Shown here one piece after another: positions 838-31,654 of a DNA stretch of 39,334 nucleotides (the stretch's first letter is position 1; each line of letters opens with the position of its first letter). Location: NCBI GenBank assembly GCA_029934695.1, contig JAOZLU010000003.1, forward strand, positions 1-39,334, read 5' to 3'. Source of the DNA: Desulfobacterales bacterium. GTDB taxonomy: Bacteria; Desulfobacterota; Desulfobacteria; Desulfobacterales; 4be13. A program made the translations under genes and the position numbers. The notes beneath the pieces were generated by a model. The model saw nothing but the letters and a program-made list of their open reading frames with translations. It searched no databases and was not told the origin of the DNA.

Positions 838-910
838 TGGCGGAGAGTCCGGGAGTTGCACCCGGCTGCATGGATTTAGAGTCCATGTGATCCCATCCGA
901 TCCACCCTCC
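838..910 (-). tRNA. pylT: tRNA-Pyl (amber suppressor, anticodon CUA), with encoded CCA end
   Basis: The minus-strand sequence is GGAGGGTGGATCGGATGGGATCACATGGACTCTAAATCCATGCAGCCGGGTGCAACTCCCGGACTCTCCGCCA. It folds as follows: acceptor GGAGGGT/ACTCTCC (7 bp, one G-U), a single linker G, D-stem GATC/GATC, a 6-bp anticodon stem CATGGA/TCCATG, loop CUCUAAA (anticodon CUA), a 3-nt variable loop CAG, T-stem CCGGG/CCCGG with the non-canonical T-loop TGCAACT, discriminator G, then CCA. The 6-bp anticodon stem, 3-nt variable loop, single base between acceptor and D stems and missing T-psi-C consensus are the known tRNA-Pyl hallmarks. From memory, the anticodon arm, variable loop and T-stem closely resemble Methanosarcina tRNA-Pyl. 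Confidence 0.9.
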
Positions 911-1051
911 ACAATACTGTTTTTTTCGCTTTGATAAATTTTAAGAATACCCCCTGAAAATCAGAGGTATTCTTATTGTTGGATAACATTTGATTGTAGT
1001 TTATGATTTTCTGTCCGGCACCTACCGGAAAGAGTTGTCAAAAACAGATAA

Positions 1052-2539
1052 TCAACTGCTTTTTTTATTCATCTCTTCATTTTCTGCTGTAGCATCTTCA
1101 ACAATGCTTCTCATAGCAGATTTTGCTTCTTTGGACAATGGCATTGGTGTATGGTTTGCAAGAATATCAGCTGCTTTTTCAGCAGCACGTTCTGCCATAT
1201 TTTTACCACCCTTACCAAGCCAGCGGTCATAATTTGAACGTTCGATAATGTGGGGTGCAGAAGGCAGTGTTCGCATGTATTTCATGGTATGAGCCTGCAT
1301 TAGATGATCACCACCGGGTCCTACCGCTTTGATCGTATCTATTGCAAGATTCTCATCATTGACAACTATTCCCTGCATCACTTTTCTAACCATTTTAAAA
1401 ATATCATTATCAATTACCAACTGGGCATAACTGAAAATCAGTCCTGAATCCAACATTCCAGCACCGTAAATCAGATTTGAACCCGCACTTGCCGCACATA
1501 AGGCGGTCAGTGTTTTTTCATGACCAGCCTGTGCATCAGGCACTTTTGAATCAGCCTATCCACCGGCAGAAAAACTCGGCAGCATATATTTTTGAGCAAG
1601 TACCGGTGCTGCTGCATTCAACAGACCGCATTCAGGAGATCCCACAGGTGTTGTTGTGAGCTTCAAGTCAAAGCTCAGGGATGAACACCCATAAATTACC
1701 GGTGCACCTTTGCATGTCAGCTGATGCAATACAATGGCACCCAGAATCTCACAATTATGAGTTACCAGAGAGCCTGCAAGGGTTATTGGGCCGGATGCTC
1801 CTGCCATTACCATTGAGATCAGGTTACATGGAACTCCGGCTCTGGCACAGGTCATCACTCCGGTACAGCAGTTCACATCCAAGGTCAGAGGGCTTGTGGG
1901 AGAACAGTTGACAGTTAGAACAGGTCGTTCTCTTAACTCATCTTCTCCTCCAACAATAGCTTGGGCCATTTTGATAATCTTGTCAGCCCGCCATCCATTT
2001 CCCGGTCCATAAACAGTATGTTTTGATGTGTTGGCAAATACCACTTCAGCCTCATAAACAGGAGCAACATTATCTGGTGCATCTCCTGCAGTCAGAGAAC
2101 GTTCACACACATCAACCTCGTCCATAGCATCTGTTAAAAGGGCAGCCTTACCCACATCTTCATTTACTGATGGTCTGACTGTTCCATCAGTTTCCATAAT
2201 ATTGACACCCTGACCAAAAGTACAAAAATTAACCCGTTTGCCTTCCAGAAACACATCATGCTCAGAATCACGTCCGTATTGTACAATTTTCGGCGGTGCT
2301 GAACGGATGCACTCTTCCACAAGATAAGCAGGAAATTTTGCAATCTTTGTTTTACGGTCAATTATTGCACCTCCCCCTTCAAGAATATCTAAGGCTTCGT
2401 CACTTCCGACATAAAGCCCTGTTGTTCTCATAACTTCGAGGGTGGCAAGGTGAATTTTTTCAATCTCATCATCCGCAAAGACATTAAAACCGAAACCACC
2501 GGTTGCGATCATGTCTGAGGCGAGACTTCTTGTCACCAT
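1052..2539 (-). CDS. mttB: Trimethylamine:corrinoid methyltransferase MttB with an in-frame UAG (pyrrolysine) codon. One 495-codon gene, not two ORFs.
   Basis: ORFs 1556..2539 and 1052..1543 are in the same frame (2539 and 1543 are both 1 mod 3). They are separated only by TAG (plus strand 'cta' at 1556-1558) and 4 sense codons. The joined protein reads '...[31 protein letters not shown]...GAGMLDSG...QLVIDNDIF'. This matches the region around Pyl334 of Methanosarcina MttB as I recall it ('AGSOSDAKVPDDQAGHEKT'). There is an AAGGAG RBS before the ATG at 2539, and the true stop is TGA at 1052-1054. Confidence 0.9.
1556..1558 (-). other. UAG recoding site (predicted pyrrolysine, residue 328 of MttB)
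   Basis: The plus strand has 'cta' at 1556-1558, which is TAG on the coding strand. MttB-family sequence continues in frame on both sides. Confidence 0.85.
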
Positions 2540-2684
2540 ATCATTCTCCTTTTAATCATTGTTCATTTTTAATTTTTTTAACTCTTGTTTCATACTCTGT
2601 TTTAATTCCTGTTATGGTATTAAATTGCGGCGTTAGGCAGATGCCTTAAATTATGGGACTGTAACTTTCATTAATTTTAATCCT

Positions 2685-2925
2685 TCCTTCCGGAGCAACC
2701 GCTGGGGTTCTGAAGAATCTCTGGGATTCAAAAAATCCTTTCTATGCAGATGACGGGATTTGGCAATCCCTCTGGAGCAACCGCTGGGGATCTGAAGAAT
2801 CCCTGAGATTCAAAAAATTCTTTCTCACACATAATCCATGCAGATGACGGGATTTGGCAATCCCTCCAGAGCAACCCTTGGGGATTCAAAAAATCCTTTC
2901 TTACACATAATCCATGTAGATGAAC
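2685..2925. repeat. Tandem repeat with a ~94-bp unit in about 2.7 copies. The third copy carries an 18-bp deletion. It lies between the two mttB-family genes.
   Basis: The unit 'cagatgacgggatttggcaatccct..gagcaacc..tgggga(tctgaagaatccctgag)attcaaaaaat.ctttct.acacataatccatg' starts at 2747 and again at 2841 (period 94). A partial copy precedes it from about 2685. Each unit carries two small palindromes, 'gggatttggcaatccc' and 'ggattcaaaaaatcc'. Confidence 0.85.
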
Positions 2926-3156
2926 AAGCCGATCAGAATACCATCTGCCGTAAATGGTACCGTTCGGCACCATCCCCGCTCCTCTGTAAATCAAAATATA
3001 TTCGTTTATGACTTTCGGGGAGCAAAAATTCAGCTATAGTAATCATGTCCTTAGTAAATCCATTTTTGCACTCCATTCGACTCTCTGGGATGTCATCGGC
3101 GATGCCGATGTTATATGCCGCTCCTTTAGTTAAAATGTTTTAAATTGTAATTTAAT

Positions 3157-4605
3157 TTATTTTTGCAGTTTTTGCTTATTTATAAAATTCTCAAGCTCTG
3201 ATTCTATATCAGGATCAAGTATAGATTCAGGAGAGGCTGCAAGAATTTGTTCAACTTTTTGAGCTGCCACCTGTCCAACATCTTTTGATCCTGATTCTAT
3301 CCATTTATCATAATTATCCCATGAAGACACATTGGGTCTCCACGTATTTCGGCAGCCTGCCATGGTTGTCGGGTGGTATAAAAAACTTCCTTTTGGACCA
3401 ATATCTTTAATTACTTCCAATCCTAAATCTTCCCCCAATTTTTCAGTGGACTGGTTCATACCTTCCATAAATCTTAATACCCTTGAAATCATCTCCTCAT
3501 CCAGAATAAATTTTTCAAAAGAGTTGGTCATAATAGAATCCATAACTCCCAGGCACTCATTTATAATACTGACACCTCCTGCAATACATTCAAACAAATT
3601 CTGCATGGTCTCAAATCCTGCCTGGGCATCCAGAGTTTTTGCATCAGTAAGACCTGCCATTGTTCTTGTGGGAAGATGGTAGAGTTCCCTTGCAAGCTGA
3701 ATGTTTGCAACATTGATGATATTACTTTCTGGAGAACCGGTTACATATTGACCATTCTGCATATTAGGTACAGCAGATGCAGGACAATAGATAAATGATG
3801 CACCTGGTTGTACAAGCTGGCAAAGAACCAACCCTGCCAGAATCTCGGCATTTTGCAGGACACAGACACCCAAAGGGTTCATTGGAGCAGAAATACCAGC
3901 CAGGGCACAGGACAAAACTGCAGATGGCTGATTAAACCTTGCATAACTGATAATGGTTTCAATGGGAATCGAATCATACACCAGAGGACTTAATGGATTA
4001 ATGGAAGCATATATAGAAGGATGATCCATCAAAAAATCTTTTTTTCCTATTGTGATCTCAAACATATCAAATATGTTCGCTATCTCTCTATGGGTATTTA
4101 CATTTCGTTTTAAAGGTTTATCTGTATGTTTGAGCATTTGAAAGAAAATATCAAGGTATCCATTCTCAGGATCGATACCAGCGGGTTCCACAGGAAAGGC
4201 TCCGCCAATATCACACACTGAACTTGCCTGGGCCAGTTTGTAAAAAACTATCAGGTCCTGCATTGTAGCCGGTCTTCTGCCCTGTTTCAGATCCTGTGCA
4301 AAAACAGCACCATTGGAAGGTTCTACATGGGTATGCTTTTGACCTTCACCCACAAGAATTGATTTTTCTGAATCTATTGCCCATAATTTAAAAGAGGCAG
4401 GAGAAGATTCAATGGCATTTTCCACAAGTTTTCCAGGAATCATCACCCGGCTGCCATCAATTTTTGCTCCATGAGTTTTAAAAATATTCAAAGCCTCGTC
4501 ATGTAAAAACTCAACACCGACCTGCTCAAGAACTTCCAGGCTTGCTTTATGTATTTTGTTTAAATCCTGATTTGTCAGCATGCAGATGAAACTTTCCAGA
4601 GCCAT
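3157..4605 (-). CDS. Non-pyrrolysine MttB-superfamily methyltransferase. Likely a quaternary-amine/betaine:corrinoid methyltransferase of unknown substrate.
   Basis: The 482-aa protein is colinear with the neighbouring MttB ('LNKIHKASLEVLEQVGVEF', 'GSPESN', 'LDAQAGFETM'). Where the paralogue has '[18 protein letters not shown]', this protein has 'TMAG-L-TDAKTLDAQAGFE'. The Pyl position is therefore a Leu codon (ctt, plus strand 3649-3651). Confidence 0.8.
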   Translation of the reverse strand: MALESFICMLTNQDLNKIHKASLEVLEQVGVEFLHDEALNIFKTHGAKIDGSRVMIPGKLVENAIESSPASFKLWAIDSEKSILVGEGQKHTHVEPSNGAVFAQDLKQGRRPATMQDLIVFYKLAQASSVCDIGGAFPVEPAGIDPENGYLDIFFQMLKHTDKPLKRNVNTHREIANIFDMFEITIGKKDFLMDHPSIYASINPLSPLVYDSIPIETIISYARFNQPSAVLSCALAGISAPMNPLGVCVLQNAEILAGLVLCQLVQPGASFIYCPASAVPNMQNGQYVTGSPESNIINVANIQLARELYHLPTRTMAGLTDAKTLDAQAGFETMQNLFECIAGGVSIINECLGVMDSIMTNSFEKFILDEEMISRVLRFMEGMNQSTEKLGEDLGLEVIKDIGPKGSFLYHPTTMAGCRNTWRPNVSSWDNYDKWIESGSKDVGQVAAQKVEQILAASPESILDPDIESELENFINKQKLQK

Positions 4606-4624
4606 ATTTTAATTTCCTTTATAT

Positions 4625-6232
4625 TCAAGAAACTTTTTCCCGTTTTAATAAAAGATTATCCAACCAGTCAGGATCCATCTCTGGTACAGAGGAGAGCAGA
4701 AGTTCTGTATAATCGTGATCTGGTGAATCAAACATATCTTTTTTATTGCCCTGTTCAACAATATTGCCTTTATACATAACAATAACTTCATCAGCGATTG
4801 CCTTTACCGTGGCAAGATCGTGGGTGATAAAAAGATAAGACATGCCAAGCTCAGTCTGAAGCTTTTGCAGCAGTTTTAAAATTTCTTCTGCAACAAGCTG
4901 GTCAAGCGCACTGGTAATTTCATCACATATAATAAGATCAGGTTCTGCTGCCAGGGCTCTGGCAATACAGATCCTCTGTTTTTGACCTCCGGAGAGTTCT
5001 GAAGGATATCTGTCATAATAATGAGAAGGAAGCTCAATCATATCTAACAGTTTATGCACTTTTTTCTTTTTGGCTTTGCCACTGAGACCTGAATAAAATT
5101 CCAAAGGTCTCCCAATAATCCGCCTTATTTTCTGCCTTGGATTCAAGGCAACATCAGGCATCTGATAAATCATCTGTAATCGTCTTAAAGTGTTAAGGCT
5201 TCGCTGTCTGACATCAGGTGAAACTGACTTGCTGTCAAATAAAACCTTGCCTTTGTTTGGAGGTAAAAGACCTGTGATAACCCGGGCAAGGGTTGTTTTT
5301 CCAGAACCCGATTCCCCCACTACAGCCACATTCTGTCCACGGAAAATTTTAAAATCAATATCTTCCACAATATTCTGACCCGGATAATAGCCAGCATCAA
5401 CTCCTTGAATTTCTAATACAACTTCTTTATGAGATTTGGTGTTATCACATTTCTGCCGCCTTACATTTAAAAGATCCTTGGTGTACTGCTCTTTTGGATT
5501 TTCCAGCATCTCTCTTGTTTCCCCATCTTCCACAAGCCTGCCATGGCGCAAGACCATAACCCTGTCAGCCACCTGGGACACCACTGCCAGGTCATGAGTA
5601 ATATAGAGGGCAGCAGTGTTGTTTATTTTGATAGCATCCCGGATGGCGGCAAGCACTTCAATCTGGGTAGTCACATCAAGTGCTGTTGTTGGTTCATCAA
5701 AGACCACAATATCCGGGTCACACCCGAGTGCCATTGCAATCATTGCACGCTGGAGCTGTCCTCCTGACACCTGGTGTGGGTAGCGATAGCCAATTGAATC
5801 AGGAAATGGAAGATTCAGACGTTTGTATAATTTTTCTGCCTTCTGTTTTGCCTGTTTGAATGTCATGTGCCCATGGCGAACAGGTGTTTCAGCAAATTGC
5901 TGAACCAGACGGTGGGCAGGGTTGAAAGATGCAGCAGCACTCTGGGCAACATAAGCGATATTGGAACCTCTCAGCTGTGTCAGCTCCTTTTTTGTTGCAT
6001 CAACAAGCTCTTTGCCATCAAACATAACCGAACCTTCGGTAATATCACATCCATCACGGGTATATCCCATTGCTGCAAGACCAAGTGTACTTTTCCCTGC
6101 TCCAGACTCTCCAATAATGCCGAGCACTTCGCCCCTGTTTAACTGAAGATCTATATCCTCCAATAAAACAGTTGTGTTGCCATCCCAATATCCTTTAATT
6201 GTCAGGTTGTCTATCTTGAGTATATTGTCCAT
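4625..6232 (-). CDS. ABC transporter ATP-binding protein with two fused ATPase domains (DppD/DppF-like)
   Basis: There are two Walker A motifs ([18 protein letters not shown]), two ABC signatures ([16 protein letters not shown]) and two Walker B motifs (VVFDEPT, IICDEIT). Confidence 0.9.
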
Positions 6233-6250
6233 TCTCTTTTCCCTTTTTAA

Positions 6251-7078
6251 TTATTGAGCCCGAATCTGAGCACTGCGCTGAAGGAACCAGTCTACAACAA
6301 GGTTAATACCAATGGTCAGAAATGCTATGGCAGCAGCAGGATAAATTGGAATTGTAATTCCAAAGGCAATTGCTCCTGCATTCTCTCTGACCATACTGCC
6401 CCAGTCAGCCGTGGGTGGTTGAAGTCCAAGCCCCAAGAAGCTTAATGCACTGATAAAAAGAAAAACAAAGGAAAATCTCAAACCAAATTCAGCAATAAGC
6501 GCAGGGGCGGCATTGGGCAAAATTTCACGCCGAATTATCCATAAAAGCCCTTCACCTCGAAGCCTTGCAACTTCAACAAATTCCAGGGCACGGATATCCA
6601 TGGCAAGAGCACGGGCCAGCCTGTAAACCTTGGTAGAATCTATAAGGGCAATGACAAAAATAAGAATGGGAATGGAAGTCCCAAAAATTGAGAGAACCAT
6701 CAGTGCAAGGATTAAAGGAGGAAATGCCATAATAATATCCACAAGACGGCTGAGCATGGAATCCAGATATCCTTCTACTGTTGCAGCAAGAAGTCCTAAT
6801 CCGGAACCAATAGCAAAGGCAATACAGGTAATGATAAAAGCAATGGAAATTGTATTTCTTGCACCATACAGCATCCTGGTAAAGAGATCTCTGCCAACCT
6901 GATCAGTCCCCATAAGGTGATCCTGACCGGGAGTTAACCACACGCTGCCTACTTTCTGAGCTTCTTCATAGGGGGCAATTACTGGTGCAAGCAGAGCTGC
7001 TGCAACATTGATCAAAATAATGACCATACCAATTTTGGCGCTCAAAGGTGCCTGTTTTAACAGTTTTATGAAAGTCAT
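6251..7078 (-). CDS. ABC transporter permease (DppC/OppC-like)
   Basis: The 275-aa protein is polytopic. It has the BPD-transport EAA-loop region 'FVEVARLRGEGLLWIIRREILPNA'. Confidence 0.85.
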   Translation of the reverse strand: MTFIKLLKQAPLSAKIGMVIILINVAAALLAPVIAPYEEAQKVGSVWLTPGQDHLMGTDQVGRDLFTRMLYGARNTISIAFIITCIAFAIGSGLGLLAATVEGYLDSMLSRLVDIIMAFPPLILALMVLSIFGTSIPILIFVIALIDSTKVYRLARALAMDIRALEFVEVARLRGEGLLWIIRREILPNAAPALIAEFGLRFSFVFLFISALSFLGLGLQPPTADWGSMVRENAGAIAFGITIPIYPAAAIAFLTIGINLVVDWFLQRSAQIRAQ

Positions 7079-7094
7079 GATGTAATCACCTCAT

Positions 7095-8051
7095 CTATTC
7101 AGAAATGTGTCGTAATTTTGGGTTAGTAATAATTGCAAGGATATCTGCTGTTAAATTAAGCAGAATATATGTTGCAGCAAAGATAAGACCGCTTGCCTGA
7201 ACAACCGGCAGATCCCTTTTTGCAACAGAATCCACGAGAAGCTGTCCAAGTCCGGGATATACAAAGACAACTTCGACAACGACCACTCCGACAATGAGCC
7301 ATGCAAGATCCATAACTACAACATTAATAATGGGGGATAAAACATTGGGAATGGCATGCTTTATAATAATAGGCCATTCGCTTACCCCTTTAAGTTTTGC
7401 CATCTCAATATATGGACTGGTAAGCACCCCTATAATGGCTGCTCTTGTCATCCTCATCATGTGTGCCATTACTACGAGAAGGAGAGTAAAACAGGGCAGT
7501 ATAATGATATTGATTTTGGTCCAAAATGGCATGCTCGCCTGAATTGTTGCAACACTTGGCAAAAGACCAAGTTTGATTGAAAAAATATAGATAAGAATAT
7601 ACCCCACAAAGAATTCAGGAAACGAAATAGCTGCAAGACTTCCCATGGATAAAATTCTGTCCGGCCATCGTTCACGAAAAAGAGCTGCTATCATGCCGAA
7701 AATTATTGCCAGAGGTACTGCAACCAATGCAGCAGAAAAAGCAAGAAAAAGAGTATTGGAAAACCGCCATCCTATGACTTCATTGACAGGACGTTTATTG
7801 GATAGTGAAGTGCCAAGGTCTCCCTGGACAAAATTACCAAGCCATGACAGATATCGGGTATGCGGTGGAAGATCAAGTTTCAGCTCTTTTCTAAGTGCTG
7901 CCAGATTTTCCGGTGTAGCCTGCTGTCCGAGAATTGCTGTTGCAGGATCTCCCGGCAAAGCCTCGATGCTCAAAAAAATCAGGATGGATACCAGAAAAAC
8001 TGTGACTATTCCTGCTGCGAGTCGCTTTAAAACCATTCCTTTTATAGACAT
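7095..8051 (-). CDS. ABC transporter permease (DppB/OppB-like)
   Basis: The 318-aa protein is polytopic. It has 'YIEMAKLKGVSEWPIIIKHAIPNVLSPII', typical of DppB/OppB. The stop codon is TAG (plus strand 'cta' at 7095-7097). Confidence 0.85.
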   Translation of the reverse strand: MSIKGMVLKRLAAGIVTVFLVSILIFLSIEALPGDPATAILGQQATPENLAALRKELKLDLPPHTRYLSWLGNFVQGDLGTSLSNKRPVNEVIGWRFSNTLFLAFSAALVAVPLAIIFGMIAALFRERWPDRILSMGSLAAISFPEFFVGYILIYIFSIKLGLLPSVATIQASMPFWTKINIIILPCFTLLLVVMAHMMRMTRAAIIGVLTSPYIEMAKLKGVSEWPIIIKHAIPNVLSPIINVVVMDLAWLIVGVVVVEVVFVYPGLGQLLVDSVAKRDLPVVQASGLIFAATYILLNLTADILAIITNPKLRHISE

Positions 8052-8087
8052 AGTTTATTCTCCTCTGTAAATACAAATATGTTTAAT

Positions 8088-8174
8088 AGAGTTGTTCCTA
8101 AATAAGCTTTTTTGGGCTTTAAGACTTTTAACCATTTGTTTTTATTGAGTCAGTATTTATTTAGGAACAACTCT
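8088..8174. repeat. Perfect 18-bp inverted repeat (long hairpin) between the binding-protein and permease genes
   Basis: 'agagttgttcctaaataa' at 8088-8105 is the exact reverse complement of 'ttatttaggaacaactct' at 8157-8174. The spacer is 51 nt. Confidence 0.85.
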
Positions 8175-8280
8175 GATGATTTCGTTTATGTGTTTATCAA
8201 GGTGGGTTGCGGGTTTCGTTTTTTACTTCGTAAAAAATCGAAATCCTCCACCCACCCTGCAACCCGGGATTTTTATCTGT

Positions 8281-8323
8281 GGCGGAAGCCCTCGCAACGA
8301 GCGTGAGCATCCGTTATAATCAG
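8281..8323. mobile_element. Partial copy (right end) of the MITE-like 'ATCCGTTATAATCAG' element
   Basis: 'ggcggaagccctcgcaacgagcgtgagcatccgttataatcag' matches the right half of the element at 11751-11887. Confidence 0.6.
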
Positions 8324-8362
8324 AACAATTAATCAGAATAATTAATCGTTAATGAACTGCCT

Positions 8363-9946
8363 CTAAGAATCGAACCACCAGCGTTCACAGAACCTTAACC
8401 CGTCAAGTTCAAGGTTGCCGGACGGATTTTCAAACATCACTTTCTTTGTTGTGGCATCAACCATGTTGGCAATTGCCGGAATGACGACTCCACCTTCATC
8501 CCTGACAATTTTCTGCATTTCAAAATATAATTCACCGCGTTTTTTCTGATTTAATTCTGCACGGGCTTCCACAAGAAGCTTATTGAACCGTTCATGTTGC
8601 CAGTGCATATCATTGGAGGGAGTAGTTCCTGAATAGGTCTGGGTAAATATCCAGTCAGCTGTTGCCCTTGCAAACCAGTATGCCGCGCTGAATGGTTTTT
8701 TATTCCACACGTTGTCCCAATAGCCATCTTTTGGCTCTTTTACAACCTGCATTTTTAATCCGGCTTTTTTAGCATCTTCCTGCCATAGCTGAGCCGCATC
8801 GAGCGCACCTGAGAAAACAGCATCAGATGTGTGAAGCTTGAACTCGTAGCCTTCCATACCTGCTTTTTTCAAATAAAACTTTGCCTTATCCGGGTCATAC
8901 TGTCTCTGGGGAAGATCTGAGGCAGTATATTTTACTATTGGTGCAATGGGATGGTCATTACCCAGTGTGCCATATCTCTGGAGAATCGTATCAAGCATCT
9001 GTTGACGATCAACGGAATACTTCACTGCCATTCTGAGATTATTATCTGTATATGGTTTTGTGTCACAAAGCATTGGGAATGTATACAAAAGTCCGCCAGG
9101 CACATCAACCAGCTTTAGTTTAGGATTTCTTTTCAGCAGATGTGCTGTTTTTCGATCCGGTTTATTGATCACATCGACCTGTCCGGTCATTAATGCAGTT
9201 GTCCTTGCTGTGACATCTGACATAAAAGTAATATCAATTTCATTGAAATGGGCACGGTTTTCTTTCCAGTAATTTGGAAATCGTTTTGCAAGCACCCTTA
9301 CACCGGGTTCATATTCCACCAGCTGATACCCGCCTGTACCAAGGCCATCCTGAAAATTTGCTGTACCATTTGGAACAATGGGCATTCGCTGAGAAGCAAG
9401 AATATAGGGAAAATCTGCACTGGCACCCTTAAGTTCTATGATAATCTGGTTCGGACCATCTTTTTTGATGCTTTTTATCGTATCCACAAGAGTTTTTATC
9501 TGGGATGCCCTTGCAGGATCACGATGATAATTGATGGAATAAACTACATCATCAGCATCCATGGTTTTACCATTATGAAATTCAACGCCTTTCCGCAGAT
9601 TAATGATCCATCTTGATGCATTCGGAGTTGCCTCCCAGCTTTGTGCCAGCTCTGGTACTGCATTGCCCTTGTGATCAATTTCAACAAGCGGGTTTCTTAA
9701 AAAGCCAAGACTTGTCATCTGAACAAAAACATCATCAAATGTTGCCGGATCAAGGGATTCTGTGGTTGATCCGCCTGCCATACCAACTTTTAAAGTACCT
9801 CCTTGCATAGGAGTGGACGCAAAAACTGATTTTGTTAAAAAACTGCCGGGCAATGCTGCACTGGCACCAAGAGCTGCACCCATTGCCAAAAATTTACGGC
9901 GGGAAATACCATTGAGATCAGGATTAACACTTGTTTTCTGGGACAT
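8363..9946 (-). CDS. ABC transporter substrate-binding protein, family 5 (DppA/OppA-like), with a twin-arginine signal
   Basis: The Tat-like N-terminus is 'ISRRKFLAMGAALGASAA'. SBP_bac_5-type motifs include 'LAQSWEATPNASRWIINLRKGVEFHNGKTMDADDVVYS'. The stop codon is TAG. Confidence 0.85.
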   Translation of the reverse strand: MSQKTSVNPDLNGISRRKFLAMGAALGASAALPGSFLTKSVFASTPMQGGTLKVGMAGGSTTESLDPATFDDVFVQMTSLGFLRNPLVEIDHKGNAVPELAQSWEATPNASRWIINLRKGVEFHNGKTMDADDVVYSINYHRDPARASQIKTLVDTIKSIKKDGPNQIIIELKGASADFPYILASQRMPIVPNGTANFQDGLGTGGYQLVEYEPGVRVLAKRFPNYWKENRAHFNEIDITFMSDVTARTTALMTGQVDVINKPDRKTAHLLKRNPKLKLVDVPGGLLYTFPMLCDTKPYTDNNLRMAVKYSVDRQQMLDTILQRYGTLGNDHPIAPIVKYTASDLPQRQYDPDKAKFYLKKAGMEGYEFKLHTSDAVFSGALDAAQLWQEDAKKAGLKMQVVKEPKDGYWDNVWNKKPFSAAYWFARATADWIFTQTYSGTTPSNDMHWQHERFNKLLVEARAELNQKKRGELYFEMQKIVRDEGGVVIPAIANMVDATTKKVMFENPSGNLELDGLRFCERWWFDS

Positions 9947-10017: not shown

Positions 10018-10033
10018 TGCAAAACATATGCCA
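10018..10033 (-). promoter_or_regulatory. Sigma-54 (-24/-12) promoter driving the ABC-transporter/mttB operon
   Basis: The minus strand reads TGGCATatgttTTGCA, with GG and GC spaced exactly as in the consensus TGGCAC-N5-TTGCA. It lies about 70 nt upstream of the ATG at 9946. An NtrC-type activator is encoded immediately upstream. Confidence 0.7.
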
Positions 10034-10336: not shown

Positions 10337-11719
10337 TTATCCGCACTCCATCATTTTTTTGAACTGATATCGAAATGTGTGATGTTTAAGATTCAACAGT
10401 TTTGCAGCCCGGGTTTCATTTCCTTTTGCAAGTTTCATTGCCTGGGAAAAATAAAATTTATCCATGTAATTTCTAACCTGGTTAAGATCTATTCCAGTGG
10501 GAGGCAGTGGTGTAAATGTAGTTGAATCTTCCATGATCTTTCCATGTTGAATTTTATTAAGTCCCAAATCATCAGGCGTTAATAATTCACCTGAGGCTAT
10601 CAGCACAGCTCTCTCCATCATGTTTTTCAACTCTCTGACATTTCCACTCCAAGTGTACAGTTTTAGCAGGTTCAATGCTTCATCACTGATACCTGTTAAA
10701 GATCTGCCAAATTTTTCATTAAACGTATGCAAAAAATATTTTGCAAGAAGTATGGTGTCCTCATGTCTGTCATTTAAAGATGGAACATTTATTTTAATGA
10801 CACTCAGGCGATAAAAAAGATCTTTTCTGAATGATCCTTTAAAAATCATTTTCTCAAGTTCCTTGTTTGTTGCTGATACTATTCGGGTTTTTATTTTATG
10901 TCGTATCGTACTGCCAACTTTATAAAATTCTCCCTCCTCAATGAACCTGAGAAGCTTTGCCTGAGCATCCAGATTCAGGTCTCCAACTTCATCTAAGAAA
11001 AGCGTACCTTTGTCAGCCATTTCAATGAGTCCTTTTTTTCCGGATTGACTTGCCCCGCTGAAAGCCCCTTTTTCATATCCGAAAAGCTCACTTTCAAGCA
11101 GTTCTGTTGGAATGGCAGCACAGTTTATAGTGACAAAGGGCCCTGCAAAATTTGGACTCCTATGATGAATTGTGCTTGCAATCAACTCTTTTCCCGTTCC
11201 TGTATCACCAAGGATAAGTATAGGTGTATCAGGGCTTTTAGCTACCATTTCCAAGTATTCCATAATATCGTGGATTGCCTTGCTTTCACCGATAAAACAC
11301 GGCAGATTTTCCCTGATCTGCTTTTCCTGAAGTTTTTTTATCTCTTTTCTAAGCCGTATGGTCTCAAGTGCATTGGCAATGGTTACCTCCAGTCCTTCCA
11401 TGTGAATGGGCTTGATGATATAATCAAAAGCACCATTTTTCATACACTCAATGACAGAGCCTATATCTTCATATGCTGTAATCATGATGACAAGAAGATT
11501 ATCACTGATTTGTTTAAACTTTTTCAATGCCTCAATTCCATTCATACCCGGCAGTCCTATATCCAGGAGAACAAGATCCGGCTGCTGAACCTTTATCTTT
11601 TCAAGTGCCTTTTCTGCTGATTCAAATGTATATAGAGAGTAATCATCTTCAAGGTCAGAAGAGATACCTTCCCGGATGGTTTTTTCATCATCTACTATAA
11701 AAAGGGTGTATTCCACCAT
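10337..11719 (-). CDS. Sigma-54-dependent response regulator (NtrC family: REC + AAA+ + Fis-type HTH)
   Basis: The REC domain has 'FIVDDEKT...DLVLLDIGLPGMNG'. The AAA+ domain has Walker A 'GDTGTGKE', the GAFTGA-type loop 'EKGAFSGA' and 'ESELFGYEKGAF'. A C-terminal HTH is present. I place the start at the ATG at 11717-11719 (MVEYTLFIV), preceded by GAGGAG. The longer ORF reaching 11872 reads through the MITE. Confidence 0.85.
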   Translation of the reverse strand: MVEYTLFIVDDEKTIREGISSDLEDDYSLYTFESAEKALEKIKVQQPDLVLLDIGLPGMNGIEALKKFKQISDNLLVIMITAYEDIGSVIECMKNGAFDYIIKPIHMEGLEVTIANALETIRLRKEIKKLQEKQIRENLPCFIGESKAIHDIMEYLEMVAKSPDTPILILGDTGTGKELIASTIHHRSPNFAGPFVTINCAAIPTELLESELFGYEKGAFSGASQSGKKGLIEMADKGTLFLDEVGDLNLDAQAKLLRFIEEGEFYKVGSTIRHKIKTRIVSATNKELEKMIFKGSFRKDLFYRLSVIKINVPSLNDRHEDTILLAKYFLHTFNEKFGRSLTGISDEALNLLKLYTWSGNVRELKNMMERAVLIASGELLTPDDLGLNKIQHGKIMEDSTTFTPLPPTGIDLNQVRNYMDKFYFSQAMKLAKGNETRAAKLLNLKHHTFRYQFKKMMECG

Positions 11720-11750
11720 TATCTTACTCCTCTCTTTGCATCTGTATTTT

Positions 11751-11887
11751 CTGATTATAACGAATGCGGGAGCATGATTCGGGACATTCCCGCTCGTTGC
11801 GGGGCGGGATCCCTGCGACTGTGCGTTGCGAGGCGGAAGCCCTCGCAACGAGTGGACTTGAAGGCTCCCCACATCCGTTATAATCAG
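11751..11887. mobile_element. Complete MITE-like element (~137 bp) with terminal inverted repeats, between the kinase and regulator genes
   Basis: The left end 'ctgattataacgaatgc' (11751-11767) and the right end 'acatccgttataatcag' (11870-11887) are inverted repeats. The interior carries 'ccctgcgactgtgcg' and 'ggcggaagccctcgcaacgagtgg'. Confidence 0.7.
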
Positions 11888-11898
11888 TATATTTAATT

Positions 11899-14433
11899 CT
11901 AAGATTGTATAAAAACAGGCATCTCAATTATAAATTTTGTACCGCCAAGTTCTGATGAAACTACTTTAAGTGTTCCTTTATGATCAGTAATAATTCTATG
12001 GCAAAGGCTCAACCCTATACCTGTACTGTTTTCTTTGGTTGTAAAAAAAGGTTCAAAAATTTTCTGCCTTAAATCTCTTGGAATACCTGGTCCATTATCA
12101 TCAATACTAAGAACAAGTTTATCATGCATGGCATTTGACGAAACCTCAATAACTCTGTTTCCTTTTTTGACCAAAAGAGCATCTGCTGCATTATTAATAA
12201 GATTTAAGATAACCTCCTCAATAAGATTTGGTTCTGCATGACAGTGAGGCAGATTTTTATCCAGTTTCTGCCTGATGGAAATCTTCTTTTTGTGAAGGGT
12301 GGTATTTGACAGATCAACTGCTTCGAGTATTGGAACATTTATATCAATTAAATCAAATTTTGGTTCTGCCGGTTTCGCAAAATTCATCACTCTTTTAATG
12401 ACAGATTCCATTTTTTGTGAAGCAGATCGTATGGCATCAATAGATGGTTTGATTTTATGAATTTTTTCCGGGTTTTCAAAACTTTTTTCTATTGTTCTGA
12501 TATAAATATTAATGCCAGACAGAGGATTTCTGATTTCATGGGCTATCCCGGCTGATACATGCCCTAAAGATGCCATTTTATCCTGAACTGCCAGCAGACG
12601 TTCCAACTCTTTTGCCCTTGTCATATCTATGGTAATCAGCAAAAGAGCTTTTTTATCCTGATGGTCAATGGGTCTGGTAATACAGTTTACCCATTTCATA
12701 GTTACCGGCTCATTTTGATCAGATGATTTAAAAAACCTGAAATCCATTTCCGACTGCACCAAAGCTCCTTTTACAATCTGCTCATACAGTTGTTTTGCCT
12801 TTTTCAAATCATCCTGATGGATATGTTTATAGGCTGGAGAGTCAAACAACCCCAAATTCCCCATGAGTTCAGACTGTCGTGAATTTTTATAGACAACCGT
12901 ACCATCCTGGATAATCGCAATACCGTTGGGGGAATTTTCCACAAGGTCCCTGAATCTTTTTTCACTTTTTTGTATGGCACGCTCATTTTTTTTTCTTTGA
13001 ATCAATCTCCACATGCCCTGAGTCAGCAGACTCAGCTGTCTTAAATCTGAAGAGTCATAATCGCTTTTTTTATTCCCCATGCCTGCAACAGCCACAATTT
13101 TATCTCCACTGAAAACAGGAACACTTATGTATCTAAAATTTTTTTTATGTTCTGTTGGAGCACCCTTTTTATATAAATTCAAGTATTCATACTTGTTTGA
13201 AATTGAGGGTTTACCTTTACGGATAGCATCTCCCCAAAATCCTTCGGTATCAGCGCCGAATCCAGTAGCAAGATTATGTTCAATCTTTTTCTTTATCGAA
13301 AAAGTGCTGCCTGGATTAACCTCATACATGATTCCTTTTTGATCTTCAAAAGCCAGATATCCAAAGTTGCTTTTTGTCAGACGAATCATCTGCTGAAAGG
13401 CAAAATCAATGGTTTCCCGGATAGAGGCATGGGTACGTTCGTTCAATTCCAGTAATGCCTCAAGGCGTATCTCATTAAATCTGAGTTCCTCGGTTCTCTG
13501 CATCACCTGATTTTTCAACATTCTGTTCCAGATCAGAATTGAACTGGTGATAAAAAGAACAGTCAGGGCAATTGCTGAAACAATATACCAGAATATTTGG
13601 GTTTGGTAGAATCTTATGGTTTCAAGCCGAATCCATTTGGCATGTATCTCTTTGTGCTCTTTTTCACTGATATTTGCCAGGGCTTTTTCAATAATTTCAG
13701 CCAAAACAGGCCAGTCTTTTCTTATCCCCAAACCAAGATTGAGTTCAAAACCAGTATCACCAGCCAGTCGAAGATTTGTAATTTTTTCAGTTTCAATGAC
13801 ATACAGGGCATTGGGCACTTCAATGATCATGGCATCAAGTTCACCAAAAGAGACTTTATGCATACCCTCATTGCCGTTTAACACATCTGTGAGGGTAAGT
13901 TCAGGATAATTATCTCTTATAAATTTACCCACTGCATACTCCTTTGGCACACCTATTTTCATCCCCTGCATCTGATCGAGGGTAAAGGTTTTTGTTCTGG
14001 ATTTTTCTACAATTATTGTTGTTTTAATATCCAGATAAGGGGTTGACCAGTTCATAAACAGTTTTCTTGCAGGGGTAGCCTGAGCTGCGCTAATGATGTC
14101 AATTTTCCTCTCTTTAGCAAGAGAAAGTATTTTTTCCCAGCTTTTAATCCTGACAATTTTAAATTTAAACTCAAATTTTTTTTCTATCAAACGAATATAA
14201 TCAGCAACCATACCCTGATACACTCCGTTTTTATCAAAAAACTCCATGGGTTCCCAGTCAGGAGCAGGTGCCAACCTGATTTTTCCGTCATGAACATTCA
14301 ACCATTTCCGTTCATCCCTGGTTAAGATATCGTTTCCGGCAAAACCAGTAGTTGAATAAAAAAGAATAGCTAACCAAAAAAGAACATCATGAATAACAGC
14401 TCGTAAAATTAAATTTATCCTTTGGTTGTCCAT
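11899..14433 (-). CDS. Sensor histidine kinase: periplasmic family-3 solute-binding domain, TM, GAF-like, PAS, HisKA, HATPase
   Basis: An N-terminal TM helix precedes an SBP_bac_3-like region ('IRLAPAPDWEPMEFFDKNGVYQGMVADY'). A second TM helix is 'IFWYIVSAIALTVLFITSSILIW'. Kinase motifs are the H-box 'GIAHEIRNPL', N-box 'LINNAADAL', G1 'DDNGPGIP' and G2 'GIGLSLC'. The stop codon is TAG. Confidence 0.85.
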   Translation of the reverse strand: MDNQRINLILRAVIHDVLFWLAILFYSTTGFAGNDILTRDERKWLNVHDGKIRLAPAPDWEPMEFFDKNGVYQGMVADYIRLIEKKFEFKFKIVRIKSWEKILSLAKERKIDIISAAQATPARKLFMNWSTPYLDIKTTIIVEKSRTKTFTLDQMQGMKIGVPKEYAVGKFIRDNYPELTLTDVLNGNEGMHKVSFGELDAMIIEVPNALYVIETEKITNLRLAGDTGFELNLGLGIRKDWPVLAEIIEKALANISEKEHKEIHAKWIRLETIRFYQTQIFWYIVSAIALTVLFITSSILIWNRMLKNQVMQRTEELRFNEIRLEALLELNERTHASIRETIDFAFQQMIRLTKSNFGYLAFEDQKGIMYEVNPGSTFSIKKKIEHNLATGFGADTEGFWGDAIRKGKPSISNKYEYLNLYKKGAPTEHKKNFRYISVPVFSGDKIVAVAGMGNKKSDYDSSDLRQLSLLTQGMWRLIQRKKNERAIQKSEKRFRDLVENSPNGIAIIQDGTVVYKNSRQSELMGNLGLFDSPAYKHIHQDDLKKAKQLYEQIVKGALVQSEMDFRFFKSSDQNEPVTMKWVNCITRPIDHQDKKALLLITIDMTRAKELERLLAVQDKMASLGHVSAGIAHEIRNPLSGINIYIRTIEKSFENPEKIHKIKPSIDAIRSASQKMESVIKRVMNFAKPAEPKFDLIDINVPILEAVDLSNTTLHKKKISIRQKLDKNLPHCHAEPNLIEEVILNLINNAADALLVKKGNRVIEVSSNAMHDKLVLSIDDNGPGIPRDLRQKIFEPFFTTKENSTGIGLSLCHRIITDHKGTLKVVSSELGGTKFIIEMPVFIQS

Positions 14434-14850: not shown

Positions 14851-14866
14851 TGGCATACATCATGCA
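14851..14866 (+). promoter_or_regulatory. Sigma-54 (-24/-12) promoter driving the corrinoid-protein operon
   Basis: TGGCATacatcATGCA has GG at 14852-14853 and GC at 14864-14865, which is consensus spacing. It lies 86 nt upstream of the ATG at 14952. Confidence 0.65.
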
Positions 14867-14951: not shown

Positions 14952-15584
14952 ATGGCGGATTTTAATGCAATGCAGGAGTCTTTAGTTAGCTGTGACAAGG
15001 ATAAACTTGTGGGTCTGGTAAATGCAGCATTGGCAGAAGACATAAGTGCATCAGATATTTTAAACCAGGGATTGATCGCTGGTATGGATATTGTTGGTGA
15101 AAAAATGGAAAACGGTGACATGTTTATTCCCGAAGTACTTATGGCAGCCAAAGCAATGGGTGAATGTGTGATTATTTTAAAGCCACTGCTCGGTGAGGAT
15201 GAGTCTTCAAAAGGTGGTAATGTAGTTATTGGAACTGTCAAAGGTGATCTTCATGACATAGGTAAAAACCTTGTTGCAATGATGATGGAGAGTGCCGGTA
15301 TGACAGTTCATAATGTGGGAGTTGATATTGCACCTGAAGATTTTGTTACTCAGATAAAAGAAAAAAATGCCCGGATTGTCTGCCTGTCAGCTCTTTTGAC
15401 CACTACAATGCCCATGATGAAACAGACTGTTGATGCCATAGTTGAAGCAGGTTTGAGAGATCAGGTTAAAGTTATGGTGGGTGGTGCGCCTGTAACCCAG
15501 GCATTTGCCGATGAGATCGGAGCTGACGGCTTTGCAGCGGATGCAGGTTCTGCTGCCAGATTTGCTAAAACTCTTTTAGCATAA
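14952..15584 (+). CDS. Methyltransferase cognate corrinoid (cobalamin-binding) protein, MttC/MtbC-like
   Basis: The 210-aa protein has an N-terminal helical cap (B12-binding_2) and a B12-binding domain. The latter has the DxHxxG motif 'GDLHDIGKNLV' and the 'SALLTTTM' and 'VMVGGAP' motifs. A GGGAG RBS is present. Confidence 0.85.
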   Translation: MADFNAMQESLVSCDKDKLVGLVNAALAEDISASDILNQGLIAGMDIVGEKMENGDMFIPEVLMAAKAMGECVIILKPLLGEDESSKGGNVVIGTVKGDLHDIGKNLVAMMMESAGMTVHNVGVDIAPEDFVTQIKEKNARIVCLSALLTTTMPMMKQTVDAIVEAGLRDQVKVMVGGAPVTQAFADEIGADGFAADAGSAARFAKTLLA

Positions 15585-15739
15585 CATTGTAAGACCGAAA
15601 ATCAGCCAAGTTGCCGGTTTTCCAAACAAATTCAGCTAATTTTCCTGAAAAATCCCATTGAACGGAACCAGTGCCAAAAATTGAGCGAAGCGGCTTTTTG
15701 CACCACACACCTCCGAGATGACAAAGATTTTATTTAAAG

Positions 15740-15839
15740 CTCTATAACGGATTCAGGGACCCCTTAAACTTAAACTTAAACTTGGACTTGGACCAAGTCC
15801 AAGTTTACGGGCATGTTCATAGGCATCCGTTATAATCAG
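15740..15839. mobile_element. MITE-like element copy (~100 bp) with a degenerate left TIR
   Basis: The left end is 'ctataacggattc' (15742-) and the right end is 'gcatccgttataatcag' (15823-15839). The interior 'aagtccaagtttacgggcatgttcatagg' is the reverse complement of the interior of the copy at 17169-17255. It also contains the palindrome cttggacttgg/ccaagtccaag. Confidence 0.7.
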
Positions 15840-15857
15840 AAAAACAGGAGAACATAA

Positions 15858-17168
15858 ATGAAGTTTATAAAAAAAGCTGCAAAAACAGCAGGGTCAAATT
15901 CAGATAAAACCCGTAGTATAGTACAGAGTATCCTTTCGGATATTGAGGCTAATGGTGAAAAGGAAATTTATGCCCTTGCCAAAAAGTTTGATAAGTGGGA
16001 AGGCGATTTTATTTTAAGCCATGAAAAAAAGAAGCGTTTAATTGATAAAGTACCTGAAGATATAAAAAAAGATATCAGGTTTGCCCATGAACAGATATAT
16101 GGATTTGCAAAAGCTCAAAAAGGGAGCTTAAAAGAGTTTGAAAAAGAAACCATTCCAGGTGTTCGTCTTGGGCAAAAAATTGTTCCCATGGAGGTTGCCG
16201 GATGTTATATTCCTGGTGGGCGCTTTGCCCATGCCTGTTCCGCTCTCATGAGCGTTGCAACAGCAAAGGCTGCAGGTGTAAAAACTGTTATTGCCTGCTC
16301 TCCTCCTCGTGGAGACAGTATTGCTCCTGCTGTTGTGTATGCTTTGGAAGTCGCAGGTGCAGATATTATTCTTGAGATGGGAGGTGTTCAGGCAATTGCC
16401 ACCATGGCATTTGGTCTTTTCACAGGAAAACCAGCCAATATCCTTGCAGGTCCCGGCAACTCCTATGTTGCTGAAGCAAAAAGTATTCTCTCTTCTGCAG
16501 GACAATGCACAATTGATGTGTTTGCAGGGCCAACGGAATCTGCCATTATCGCAGATAAAACTGCTGATTATATGACTATTGCGATTGATCTTGTTTCCCA
16601 GGCAGAGCACGGGATTGATTCGCCTGTATGGCTGTTCACAGATTCAAAAGAAGTGGGAGAAAAAGTCCTTGAAGTGATACCAAAAATTATTGCTGATATG
16701 CCTGATCCTGATGTTCCTGCATCCTCATGGCGTGATTATGGAGAAATAATTCTTTGTAAGGATAGAGAAGAGATTTGTAAAGTAAATGACCAGTATGCTG
16801 CTGAACATGTGCAGGTGATGGCACGGGATATTGAGTGGTGGAAAGAAAACCTCACCTCCTATGGTTCCCTGTTTCTTGGTGAAGGAAGTACAGTTCCCCA
16901 CGGCGACAAGTGTTCCGGCACTAATCATATTCTTCCTACCAAAAAAGCAGGGTATTATTCAGGTGGGCTAAATGTCTTTAAGTTCCTCAAAATTTATACA
17001 TATCAAGAGATCAGCAAAGAAGCCAACATGGTCATCAGCGGGGCTGCATCTCGATTATCACGGGTTGAAGGAATGGAAGGTCATGCAAGAGCCTGTGATT
17101 TCAGATTAAGAAAATATTTCCCGAATCAGGCGTGGAAATTCAATGTCTATGAACAGACTGAATATTAA
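15858..17168 (+). CDS. Histidinol-dehydrogenase-family NAD-dependent 4-electron dehydrogenase (HisD/HpsN-like), substrate unknown
   Basis: HisD catalytic and Zn motifs are conserved: 'SQAEHG', 'YAAEHVQV', 'GDKCSGTNHILPT' and 'EGMEGHARA'. The protein is 436 aa. An AGGAG RBS is present. Confidence 0.8.
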   Translation: MKFIKKAAKTAGSNSDKTRSIVQSILSDIEANGEKEIYALAKKFDKWEGDFILSHEKKKRLIDKVPEDIKKDIRFAHEQIYGFAKAQKGSLKEFEKETIPGVRLGQKIVPMEVAGCYIPGGRFAHACSALMSVATAKAAGVKTVIACSPPRGDSIAPAVVYALEVAGADIILEMGGVQAIATMAFGLFTGKPANILAGPGNSYVAEAKSILSSAGQCTIDVFAGPTESAIIADKTADYMTIAIDLVSQAEHGIDSPVWLFTDSKEVGEKVLEVIPKIIADMPDPDVPASSWRDYGEIILCKDREEICKVNDQYAAEHVQVMARDIEWWKENLTSYGSLFLGEGSTVPHGDKCSGTNHILPTKKAGYYSGGLNVFKFLKIYTYQEISKEANMVISGAASRLSRVEGMEGHARACDFRLRKYFPNQAWKFNVYEQTEY

Positions 17169-17255
17169 CTGATTATAACGGATGCGGGGAGCCCTATGAA
17201 CATGCCCGTAAACTTGGACTTTAAGTTCAAGGGATCCCGTATCCGTTATAATCAG
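17169..17255. mobile_element. MITE-like element copy (87 bp) with intact TIRs, in opposite orientation to the 15740-15839 copy
   Basis: The ends are 'ctgattataacggatgc' (17169-17185) and 'atccgttataatcag' (17241-17255). The interior is 'ccctatgaacatgcccgtaaacttggactt'. The element starts immediately after the HisD-like stop codon. Confidence 0.75.
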
Positions 17256-17300
17256 AATATTTGATTCTGGAGTATTAAACATGAATCAGGAGTGAATCTC

Positions 17301-18512
17301 ATGACCGATATAGATCAAAAAAAATTCACAAAAAATTTTACTTTACAGGAACCTATTGGAAAACAGGGGATTGAAAAAGCCCTCTCAATATTGAATTCCG
17401 GTAAGATTCACAGATATAATGTGGATGAGGGAGAAAAAGGCGAGACTGCTCTGCTCGAAGAGGAATTTGCAGCATATATGGGTAAAAAATATTGCCTTGC
17501 CTGTGCATCATGTGGAAGTGCTATGTATCTCGCACTTAAAAGTGCCGGCGTAAAATCTGGAGATAAGGTTTTGTGTAATGCCTATACTCTTGCTCCTGTT
17601 CCTGGAGCAATTGAAAATTCAGGAGCTGACATTGAACTTGTTGATATAGTAGATGATTACACCATTGATCTGGATGACCTTGAAAGAAAAGCCAAAAAAG
17701 AGAAGAATGCTAAATGGCTTATGCTGTCCCACATGCGCGGGCATATCACCAATATGGAAAGAGTTGTTGAAATATGCAATGCTGATAATCTGGTCCTGAT
17801 AGAAGATTGTGCCCACACAATGGGGGCATCATGGGATGGCAAAAGATCAGGTTCGTTTGGAAAAGTCAGCTGTTTCAGCACCCAGACATATAAACATATG
17901 AATTCAGGAGAAGGAGGACTTCTTGTTACAGATGATCCTGATCTCATTGCGCGTGCAATTATCTATTCAGGATCATATATGCTCTATGAACGGCATACTG
18001 CACGACCTCCAATGGATGTTTTTGAAAATATTAACACAATGGTGCCTAACTATTCCTGCCGAATGGATAATCTTAGAGCAGCCATATTAAGACCTCAGTT
18101 GGAAAATCTGAATACCCAGTGTGAATGTTGGAACAGACGTTACAGATTTTTGGAGCAGGGTTTAATTCAAATCAAGGGTATTACCTGTCCGAAAAGAGAT
18201 CCTCGGGAAAACTATGTCGGCAGCTCCATCCAATTTTCCCTAATTGATCAAGATGAAACAACCATCAAAAAATTTCTTATCAAATGCATGGATCAGGGTG
18301 TTGAACTCAAATGGTTTGGCAGCGAAAAACCTGTTGGCTTTACAAGTGTTTATTCAAGCTGGGAGTATTTTAATAATCTGCCTTATCTTGCCAATACCAA
18401 GCGCATTCTTGCCACAATGTGCGATATGCGCATCCCTCTGACATTTGACATAAAGGACTGCAAACTGATTTTACAAATCATCAAAGATGTTGCTCAAACC
18501 ATATTGAAATAA
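17301..18512 (+). CDS. PLP-dependent aminotransferase of the DegT/DnrJ/EryC1/StrS family
   Basis: 'LIEDCAHTMGA' and 'SCFSTQTYKHMNSGEGGLLVTDD' (putative PLP lysine) are typical of the family. I place the start at the ATG at 17301, 9 nt after AGGAG. The track's 17292 start is a GTG inside the RBS spacer. Confidence 0.7.
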   Translation: MTDIDQKKFTKNFTLQEPIGKQGIEKALSILNSGKIHRYNVDEGEKGETALLEEEFAAYMGKKYCLACASCGSAMYLALKSAGVKSGDKVLCNAYTLAPVPGAIENSGADIELVDIVDDYTIDLDDLERKAKKEKNAKWLMLSHMRGHITNMERVVEICNADNLVLIEDCAHTMGASWDGKRSGSFGKVSCFSTQTYKHMNSGEGGLLVTDDPDLIARAIIYSGSYMLYERHTARPPMDVFENINTMVPNYSCRMDNLRAAILRPQLENLNTQCECWNRRYRFLEQGLIQIKGITCPKRDPRENYVGSSIQFSLIDQDETTIKKFLIKCMDQGVELKWFGSEKPVGFTSVYSSWEYFNNLPYLANTKRILATMCDMRIPLTFDIKDCKLILQIIKDVAQTILK

Positions 18513-18521
18513 GGAAATATT

Positions 18522-18681
18522 ATGTCTGAAACAGTAATCACAACCGATAGGGCCCCTTCTGCCAGAGTCAATAAAATTTACGCTCAATATTTTAAAAAAC
18601 CGTTTCCTGCCAAGTGCCTTTCAGGTGGCTGCATTGCCATTAGGTGCTGATGTGGAAGTGAAAGCTGTTTTTCAATTATAA
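18522..18681 (+). pseudogene. RidA/YjgF (enamine/imine deaminase) remnant with a ~70-codon internal deletion and a frameshift
   Basis: The N-terminus 'MSETVITTDRAPSA' (compare E. coli RidA 'MSKTIATENAPAA') is joined directly to 'RVNKIYAQYFKKPFPAKC' (compare 'TVNATYEAFF..FPARSC'). The +2 frame then gives 'AALPLGADVEVKAVFQL*' (compare 'ARLPKDVKIEIEAIA'). The total is 160 nt, against about 385 nt for an intact gene. Confidence 0.7.
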
Positions 18682-18707
18682 CCATATATATAGAAAGGAT
18701 AATCCTA

Positions 18708-19724: not shown

Positions 19725-19844
19725 CACAGGGAGCTGTTTTTCAGCAGTTCCCTGCTTACCAGCAATATAACGAATTGAAATACAGGGAACTACACACTGA
19801 TAATGATCTTGAAATTAAATGTTTTAATCAGGAATTAAAAAAAT

Positions 19845-31645: not shown

Positions 31646-31654
31646 GCGGGTGAG

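Follow-up and report, generated by a model that had tools for sequence, protein, structure and literature searches.

An in-frame UAG as the predicted pyrrolysine codon of an mttB gene in Desulfobacteraceae

In contig JAOZLU010000003.1 of a Desulfobacterales bacterium (GCA_029934695.1), of which we analysed a stretch of 39,334 nucleotides (the window), a gene related to trimethylamine methyltransferases is interrupted by a TAG triplet and appears in gene calls as two open reading frames (ORFs). The question raised by this locus is whether the two ORFs are separate products, the remains of one damaged gene or a single gene in which the amber triplet is read as pyrrolysine (Pyl). Judged from its sequence and that of its relatives, the region 1052..2539 on the minus strand is very probably one mttB gene, whose product of 495 residues would be a pyrrolysine-dependent trimethylamine:corrinoid protein Co-methyltransferase. 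The host, a Desulfobacula-like member of the Desulfobacteraceae, is named through its relatives; the 90% cluster contains an entry for 'Candidatus Desulfobacula maris'. The features on which this assignment is based are the following.

1052..2539, minus strand: mttB, complete trimethylamine:corrinoid methyltransferase gene of 495 codons including one in-frame TAG; single frame, Pfam MTTB in both halves, TIGR02369, match to 7XCL
1556..1558, minus strand: in-frame TAG, codon 328, the predicted pyrrolysine codon; aligns to X334 of 7XCL (Pyl334 of Methanosarcina barkeri MttB)
1052..1555, minus strand: C-terminal 167 codons of mttB after the TAG, including the called ORF '1052..1543'; conservation, ratio of non-synonymous to synonymous substitution rates (dN/dS), invariant residues

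Reading frame and pyrrolysine column of mttB

Translation of the minus strand from 2539 to 1052 yields 327 residues, the TAG, the four residues ADSK, the 163 residues of the 'GTG ORF' and a TGA. A previous reading of this DNA, made from the sequence alone, had stated that the two ORFs share one frame and are separated only by the TAG at 1556-1558 and ADSK, and this is borne out. The gene starts with an ATG at 2539, carries AAGGAG 5′ of it and terminates with the TGA at 1052-1054. Apart from the TAG, the frame is devoid of stops and frameshifts. It comprises 495 sense or Pyl codons, so that decoding of the TAG would give 495 residues, the length that the sequence-only reading had given for Methanosarcina MttB; the M. 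barkeri chain is indeed described to residue 495 (PMC9842639). The GTG at 1543-1541, from which the second ORF was called, is an internal Val codon of mttB, as had been supposed. No other TAG in the window is flanked by at least 100 stop-free codons on each side, and a scan by this measure revealed no other candidate Pyl gene there.

The two halves of the gene match consecutive parts of the Pfam MTTB profile, the upstream half positions 31-338 (E 4e-49) and the downstream half positions 341-497 (E 1.5e-37). When the joined protein was compared with all PDB sequences by phmmer, the best match was the M. barkeri trimethylamine methyltransferase 7XCL/7XCN (E 8e-115). The NCBIfam model TIGR02369 (trimeth_pyl), an equivalog model of Pyl-type MttB, scored 645.2 bits against a cutoff of 525. 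Position 334 of the 7XCL chain, a non-standard residue written X, coincides exactly with the TAG column in the phmmer alignment. This residue is Pyl334 of M. barkeri MttB and constitutes the catalytic centre in the solved structure (PMC9842639). The expectation that the junction represents the conserved block around Pyl334, with the TAG in the Pyl column of characterised MttB, is therefore confirmed by the alignment to 7XCL/7XCN. Both proteins have 495 residues and align from end to end with UAG/Pyl in the same column, and they share the flanking motif, which reads AGS-O-SDAKVPDDQAGHEKT in M. barkeri. The active-site residues Gly110, Met249 and Tyr364 of the M. barkeri enzyme, which has been characterised in biochemistry and structure (7XCL/7XCM/7XCN), are retained in the MttB of the window as Gly109, Met243 and Tyr358; Gly109 and Met243 are invariant in an alignment of 29 proteins, and the Tyr358 codon is invariant in the 87 sequences described below.

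Members of the MttB superfamily that do not contain Pyl act on quaternary amines and have a sense codon at the Pyl column, where mttB has TAG. The glycine betaine enzyme MtgB of Desulfitobacterium hafniense (2QNE/9YCE), with Leu in this position, belongs to the same Pfam MTTB fold family and shares the DSK..DAQAG block.

tRNA-Pyl and pyl genes

838..910, minus strand: pylT, tRNA-Pyl (CUA) with encoded CCA; ARAGORN, minimum free energy (MFE) cloverleaf, covariation

ARAGORN detects a single tRNA in the whole window of 39 kb, a tRNA-Pyl (CUA). It is located 141 nucleotides after the mttB stop on the same strand, in agreement with the cognate suppressor tRNA that had been noticed about 140 nucleotides away. 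In its MFE cloverleaf, the acceptor stem has 7 bp and is separated from the D stem by one base, the anticodon stem has 6 bp and carries a CUCUAAA loop, the variable loop is 3 nucleotides long and the T-loop reads UGCAACU. Hallmarks of tRNA-Pyl are an anticodon stem that is longer than usual and a variable loop that is almost missing (PMC11363022). Compensatory changes were found in 8 of the 22 base pairs when 12 distinct pylT genes from related loci were compared. The general tRNA model of Rfam produced no match at 838-910 in a 3.3 kb search, even at E <= 1.

About 800 nucleotides beyond pylT the window ends. Another contig, JAPOGT010000030.1 (GCA_029935795.1, locus L001), is identical to the window base for base over approximately 12.4 kb, and the differences are confined to the last ~100 nucleotides of the overlap, within the remnant of an ilvD gene. 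Past the left edge of the window, L001 continues with pylSc-pylB-pylC-pylD-pylSn, each of which exceeds its NCBIfam equivalog cutoff. The identity of the two contigs together with the pyl genes on L001 thus indicates that the host has a full bacterial (split-PylS) system adjoining mttB.

Conservation of the TAG and rival explanations

For comparative analysis, one genome per species was scanned and the resulting 80 loci were searched by tblastn with the MttB of the window. Most loci originate from Desulfobacterales or Desulfobacteraceae and some from Peptococcaceae, Desulfosporosinus and Syntrophomonadaceae. The window and 86 homologues make up a set of 87 TAG-bearing sequences. The best match (47-93% identity) carries TAG in the aligned column without exception across the 80 loci, with one high-scoring segment pair crossing the stop in each case, and seven loci possess a second TAG-type copy. 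Neither TAA nor TGA occurs at the Pyl column in the 80 loci and the 7 extra copies. More distant paralogues in these loci (<=43% identity) contain sense codons there, e.g. for Leu, Ala, Ile, Ser, Cys or Met. On average, the part before the TAG shares an identity of 0.599 with the MttB of the window and the part after it 0.589. Among the closest orthologues, whose synonymous sites are near saturation, dN/dS (Nei-Gojobori) ranges from 0.02 to 0.07 before the TAG and from 0.04 to 0.14 after it. The low downstream ratio and an identity equal to that of the upstream part argue that the downstream frame is translated and constrained.

These figures bear directly on the possibility of a pseudogene, in which a nonsense mutation cut mttB at codon 328 and left the 167 downstream codons to decay. 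Such a history would fit the two separate fragments of 327 and 163 residues in gene calls and public databases, the use of TAG as an ordinary terminator by other genes of the window and the vicinity of a true pseudogene, the ilvD remnant. However, it is difficult to reconcile with a TAG that is found in the best copy of all loci, never as TAA or TGA and never at another position, with the downstream identity and dN/dS, and with a frame free of additional stops and frameshifts. We rejected it as exceedingly improbable; TAG conservation, purifying selection downstream and the Pyl machinery support the view of the sequence-only reading that the gene is decoded with Pyl. No more credit can be given to a split gene, whose 327-residue and 163-residue products, the latter initiated at GTG 1543, would be made apart and assemble into an active enzyme lacking pyrrolysine. 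A possible GTG start lies just four codons past the TAG, but a codon suitable as start (GTG/TTG) occupies this position in only 21 of the 87 TAG-bearing sequences, and in most of the others the first in-frame start follows 16-23 codons downstream. Moreover, Asp+2 and Lys+4 after the TAG are invariant (87/87) although they would remain untranslated in a split gene. The rarity of the start codon and the invariance of these residues rule out the split gene, which is also at variance with Pyl as catalytic centre of the solved structure and with complete Pyl machinery next to mttB. A sequencing or assembly error that put TAG in place of a normal sense codon has nothing in its favour except the general possibility of such errors in metagenome assemblies. 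As the exact 327-residue product and the same TAG are found on contigs of six independent assemblies (different samples; NCBI, ENA, JGI), and as 80 other genomes have the TAG as well, an error is ruled out and its probability is negligible.

Of the alternatives considered, the least improbable, though still very unlikely, is that the UAG is read by a near-cognate or other tRNA inserting a standard residue such as Trp, Gln, Tyr or Lys. In its favour, relatives with approximately 50-53% identity have TGG (Trp) at the exact Pyl column, suggesting that a standard residue is structurally tolerable. Against it stand the dedicated tRNA-Pyl(CUA) 141 nucleotides away, the pylSc/B/C/D/Sn genes passing equivalog cutoffs on the matching contig, and the strict conservation of TAG; it has not drifted to a sense codon, which implies that no single mutation can supply a substitute for the encoded residue.

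The Trp-type proteins deserve mention in their own right. They are full-length MttB homologues 44-53% identical to the MttB of the window (P0043 and P0050, with the relatives P0047, P0049, P0051, P0054 and P0056). The Trp codon was checked in L087 (2521-3999) and L088 (1598-3100) and is TGG in both, one transition away from TAG. On both contigs the Trp-type gene adjoins a TAG-type mttB, and on L087 it also neighbours mtbB and pylS.

How the UAG of mttB might be distinguished from a stop is a separate matter. An Rfam match lies directly at this position.

1459..1558, minus strand: match to Rfam RF02510 (PYLIS_3, 'pyrrolysine insertion sequence mttB'); score 82.4 bits, gathering threshold 38, model positions 1-100, starting at the TAG

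The structure of RF02510, which consists of 8 pairs, was examined in an ungapped alignment of 87 bacterial mttB segments. Standard pairing was observed in 74.6% of the cells compared to 75.5 +/- 0.8% after shuffling, the covariation score was 0.230 versus a shuffled mean of 0.247, and RNAalifold returned 0 consensus pairs for these 87 sequences. The variation within the segment resides at third codon positions. Together with pairing at the level of shuffled sequences, this shows that the Rfam match reflects protein-coding conservation, and we rejected a structured PYLIS recoding element after the TAG. Earlier work likewise found no common PYLIS in bacterial genes (PMC1976440).

A gene on the opposite strand might encode the corrinoid partner of MttB.

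14952..15584, plus strand: candidate cognate corrinoid (B12-binding) protein of 210 residues; Pfam B12-binding and B12-binding_2; 12.4 kb from mttB, other strand

Several points weigh against our assignment of mttB as a Pyl-decoded gene. The pyl biosynthesis and ligase genes lie outside the window and are attributed to its host through a contig that matches most of the overlap. This candidate corrinoid protein remains below the cutoffs of TIGR02370 pyl_corrinoid (194 versus 215 bits) and, likewise, of the MtbC and MtgC models, and neither a methylcorrinoid:tetrahydrofolate methyltransferase nor a reductive activase was seen in the window. In the active site, Thr111 of M. barkeri MttB is replaced by Gln110; in the M. 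barkeri structure it is the main chain of the Gly110-Thr111 peptide that holds the role (PMC9842639). No conserved RNA element marks the mttB UAG in the 87 sequences. Finally, TAG terminates 7 of the 21 other large ORFs in the window, from which it follows that a truncated 327-residue product must also arise to some extent.

Among the orthologous mttB genes (loci L007-L086), 29 of 76 likewise have TAG as their final stop. Taken together with its use in the window, this indicates that UAG is ambiguous and not reassigned in these Pyl-encoding bacteria. With TAG as the stop of one third of the genes nearby, the read-through is likely to be incomplete, conditional or both. According to work cited in PMC8318568, conditional expression of Pyl decoding has been reported for Firmicutes.

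Established knowledge of the family allows us to propose how MttB would be made and act. Pyrrolysine would be synthesized from lysine by PylB, PylC and PylD and loaded onto tRNA-Pyl(CUA) by PylSc and PylSn. At codon 328 the charged tRNA would then compete with release factor 1 for the UAG, with no help from a dedicated mRNA structure, and this competition is possibly subject to conditional expression as in Firmicutes. Once the TIM barrel has folded, trimethylamine is expected to bind to the pyrroline imine of Pyl328, which together with Gly109, Met243 and Tyr358 would hold a methyl group in place for its transfer to the Co(I) corrinoid protein; the methyl group would then enter one-carbon metabolism.

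Related systems and neighbouring genes

Pyl-encoding mttB in Desulfobacterales is already published and is caught by curated models, so that conceptually nothing is new here. Such genes, together with pylT and pylSn/Sc/BCD, were reported in 2021 for the metagenome-assembled genomes (MAGs) Deltaproteobacteria-bbl, which represent marine Desulfobacterales (Kivenson et al., PMC8318568) and in which a non-Pyl 'glycine betaine methyltransferase' homologue is located next to mttB and a corrinoid protein gene nearby (PMC8318568). For the delta-1 symbiont of Olavius algarvensis, a Pyl-encoding mttB was reported along with pylT and pylSn/Sc/BCD (Zhang & Gladyshev 2007, PMC1976440). The locus described here shares with these marine deltaproteobacterial genes (PMC8318568, PMC1976440) the taxon range, the in-frame TAG, conserved residues after it, a non-Pyl MttB-family gene in the locus, a corrinoid protein nearby and the lack of a common PYLIS structure. 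The bbl MAG CORE_19_RING_Bin_00001 is in our set (locus L041) and has TAG at the column; its copy is ~49% identical to the MttB of the window. In contrast to these systems, pylT of the window directly follows mttB and is split from pylSc-B-C-D-Sn by the ilvD remnant. The differences from M. barkeri are broader. The host is a bacterium (Desulfobacteraceae) and not a methanogen, the methyl group presumably goes to tetrahydrofolate instead of coenzyme M, PylS is split into PylSc and PylSn, and TAG is a common terminator.

The practical value of the finding lies in annotation. Public collections enter mttB as two pieces of 327 and 163 residues, the larger one labelled 'hypothetical protein' or 'trimethylamine methyltransferase family protein', and these split entries need correcting.

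The ilvD remnant (dihydroxy-acid dehydratase, ilvD/Edd family) is frameshifted and extends over positions 1-~800 of the window on the plus strand and 11794-12741 of L001, between pylT and pylSc. Its fragments occupy more than one reading frame of the strand that does not carry mttB and pylT, and its content of G and C (GC) is 54-57% compared to ~42% next door. The pattern of frameshifts and indels varies among the otherwise matching assemblies L001, L002 and L004. The GC-richer block that holds the remnant may have been acquired horizontally.

Beyond the remnant, the cassette pylSc-pylB-pylC-pylD-pylSn occupies 12798-17247 of L001 (50-54% GC). A different order is found in L007, L011 and L029 (MttB 81-90% identical) and in L048 and L082 (~49%), where pylSn directly follows pylT or mttB and pylB-C-D-Sc come next where the contig continues. 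The Pyl proteins of these relatives are only 41-64% identical to those of L001, whereas pylT differs from that of L007 by 1 nucleotide. Divergent proteins and a different gene order despite a near-identical pylT suggest that the pyl cassette next to the window was replaced horizontally.

The position of pylT behind mttB raises the idea that it is co-transcribed with mttB, its main client, which we regard as unlikely. No match to a sigma-70-like promoter was found on the same strand between the mttB stop and pylT. This interval contains a weak terminator-like hairpin at 951-967 (minus strand), CCTCTGATTTTCAGGGG followed by a T-poor tail. The ilvD remnant in its GC-richer block cuts pylT off from pylSc-B-C-D-Sn. 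Were the supply of tRNA-Pyl coupled to transcription of mttB, UAG would be suppressed only under trimethylamine-induced conditions. Such a limit would shield the genes that terminate in TAG, about a third of the genome's total, and would parallel, in Deltaproteobacteria, the carbon-source-dependent code expansion described in Firmicutes.

On the other side of mttB, the 617-nucleotide intergenic region 5′ of the gene contains about three imperfect direct repeats at 2685-2925, which are 85-93% identical and spaced by 76-94 nucleotides. They were found by a separate repeat search; Tandem Repeats Finder reported none in 2500-3200.

The next gene, 3157..4605 (minus strand), is a non-Pyl member of the MttB superfamily with CTT/Leu at the Pyl column. 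It scores 312 bits with TIGR02369, below the cutoff of 525, and its best PDB match is MtgB (E 1.7e-80). The gene is located directly downstream of an Opp/Dpp-type ATP-binding cassette (ABC) transporter composed of a family-5 binding protein, two permeases and a double ATPase (3157-9946, minus strand). This region is probably a quaternary-amine uptake and demethylation operon, and the candidate corrinoid protein 14952..15584 may serve this non-Pyl paralogue instead of MttB. Located 3′ of the corrinoid gene (14952-20552, plus strand) are members of the histidinol-dehydrogenase, DegT/DnrJ aminotransferase, pyridoxal phosphate-dependent (PALP) and Asp/Glu racemase families, an unusual gene set beside a methyltransferase corrinoid protein.

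Two sites resembling sigma-54 promoters, TGGCATATGTTTTGCA at 10018-10033 (minus strand) and TGGCATACATCATGCA at 14851-14866 (plus strand), are situated ~70-90 nucleotides 5′ of the genes for the binding protein and the corrinoid protein. Between the two sites lies 10337..14433, which codes for a histidine kinase (SBP_bac_3 + GAF sensor) and a response regulator of the sigma-54 activator type. Across the window, the number of sigma-54-like matches is not above chance, and no sigma-54 promoter was found directly upstream of mttB in 2540-3156.

Far from mttB, the block 25978-39091 (minus strand) includes a gene for a bacterial alpha-2-macroglobulin of 1856 residues. GC content in this block is ~51-54% over 26-31 kb, and most of the first 20 kb of the window has ~39-44%. 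Nearby genes code for three very large periplasmic binding proteins (733, 743 and 960 residues), of which the 960-residue protein is a fusion of Peripla_BP_6 to SBP_bac_5.

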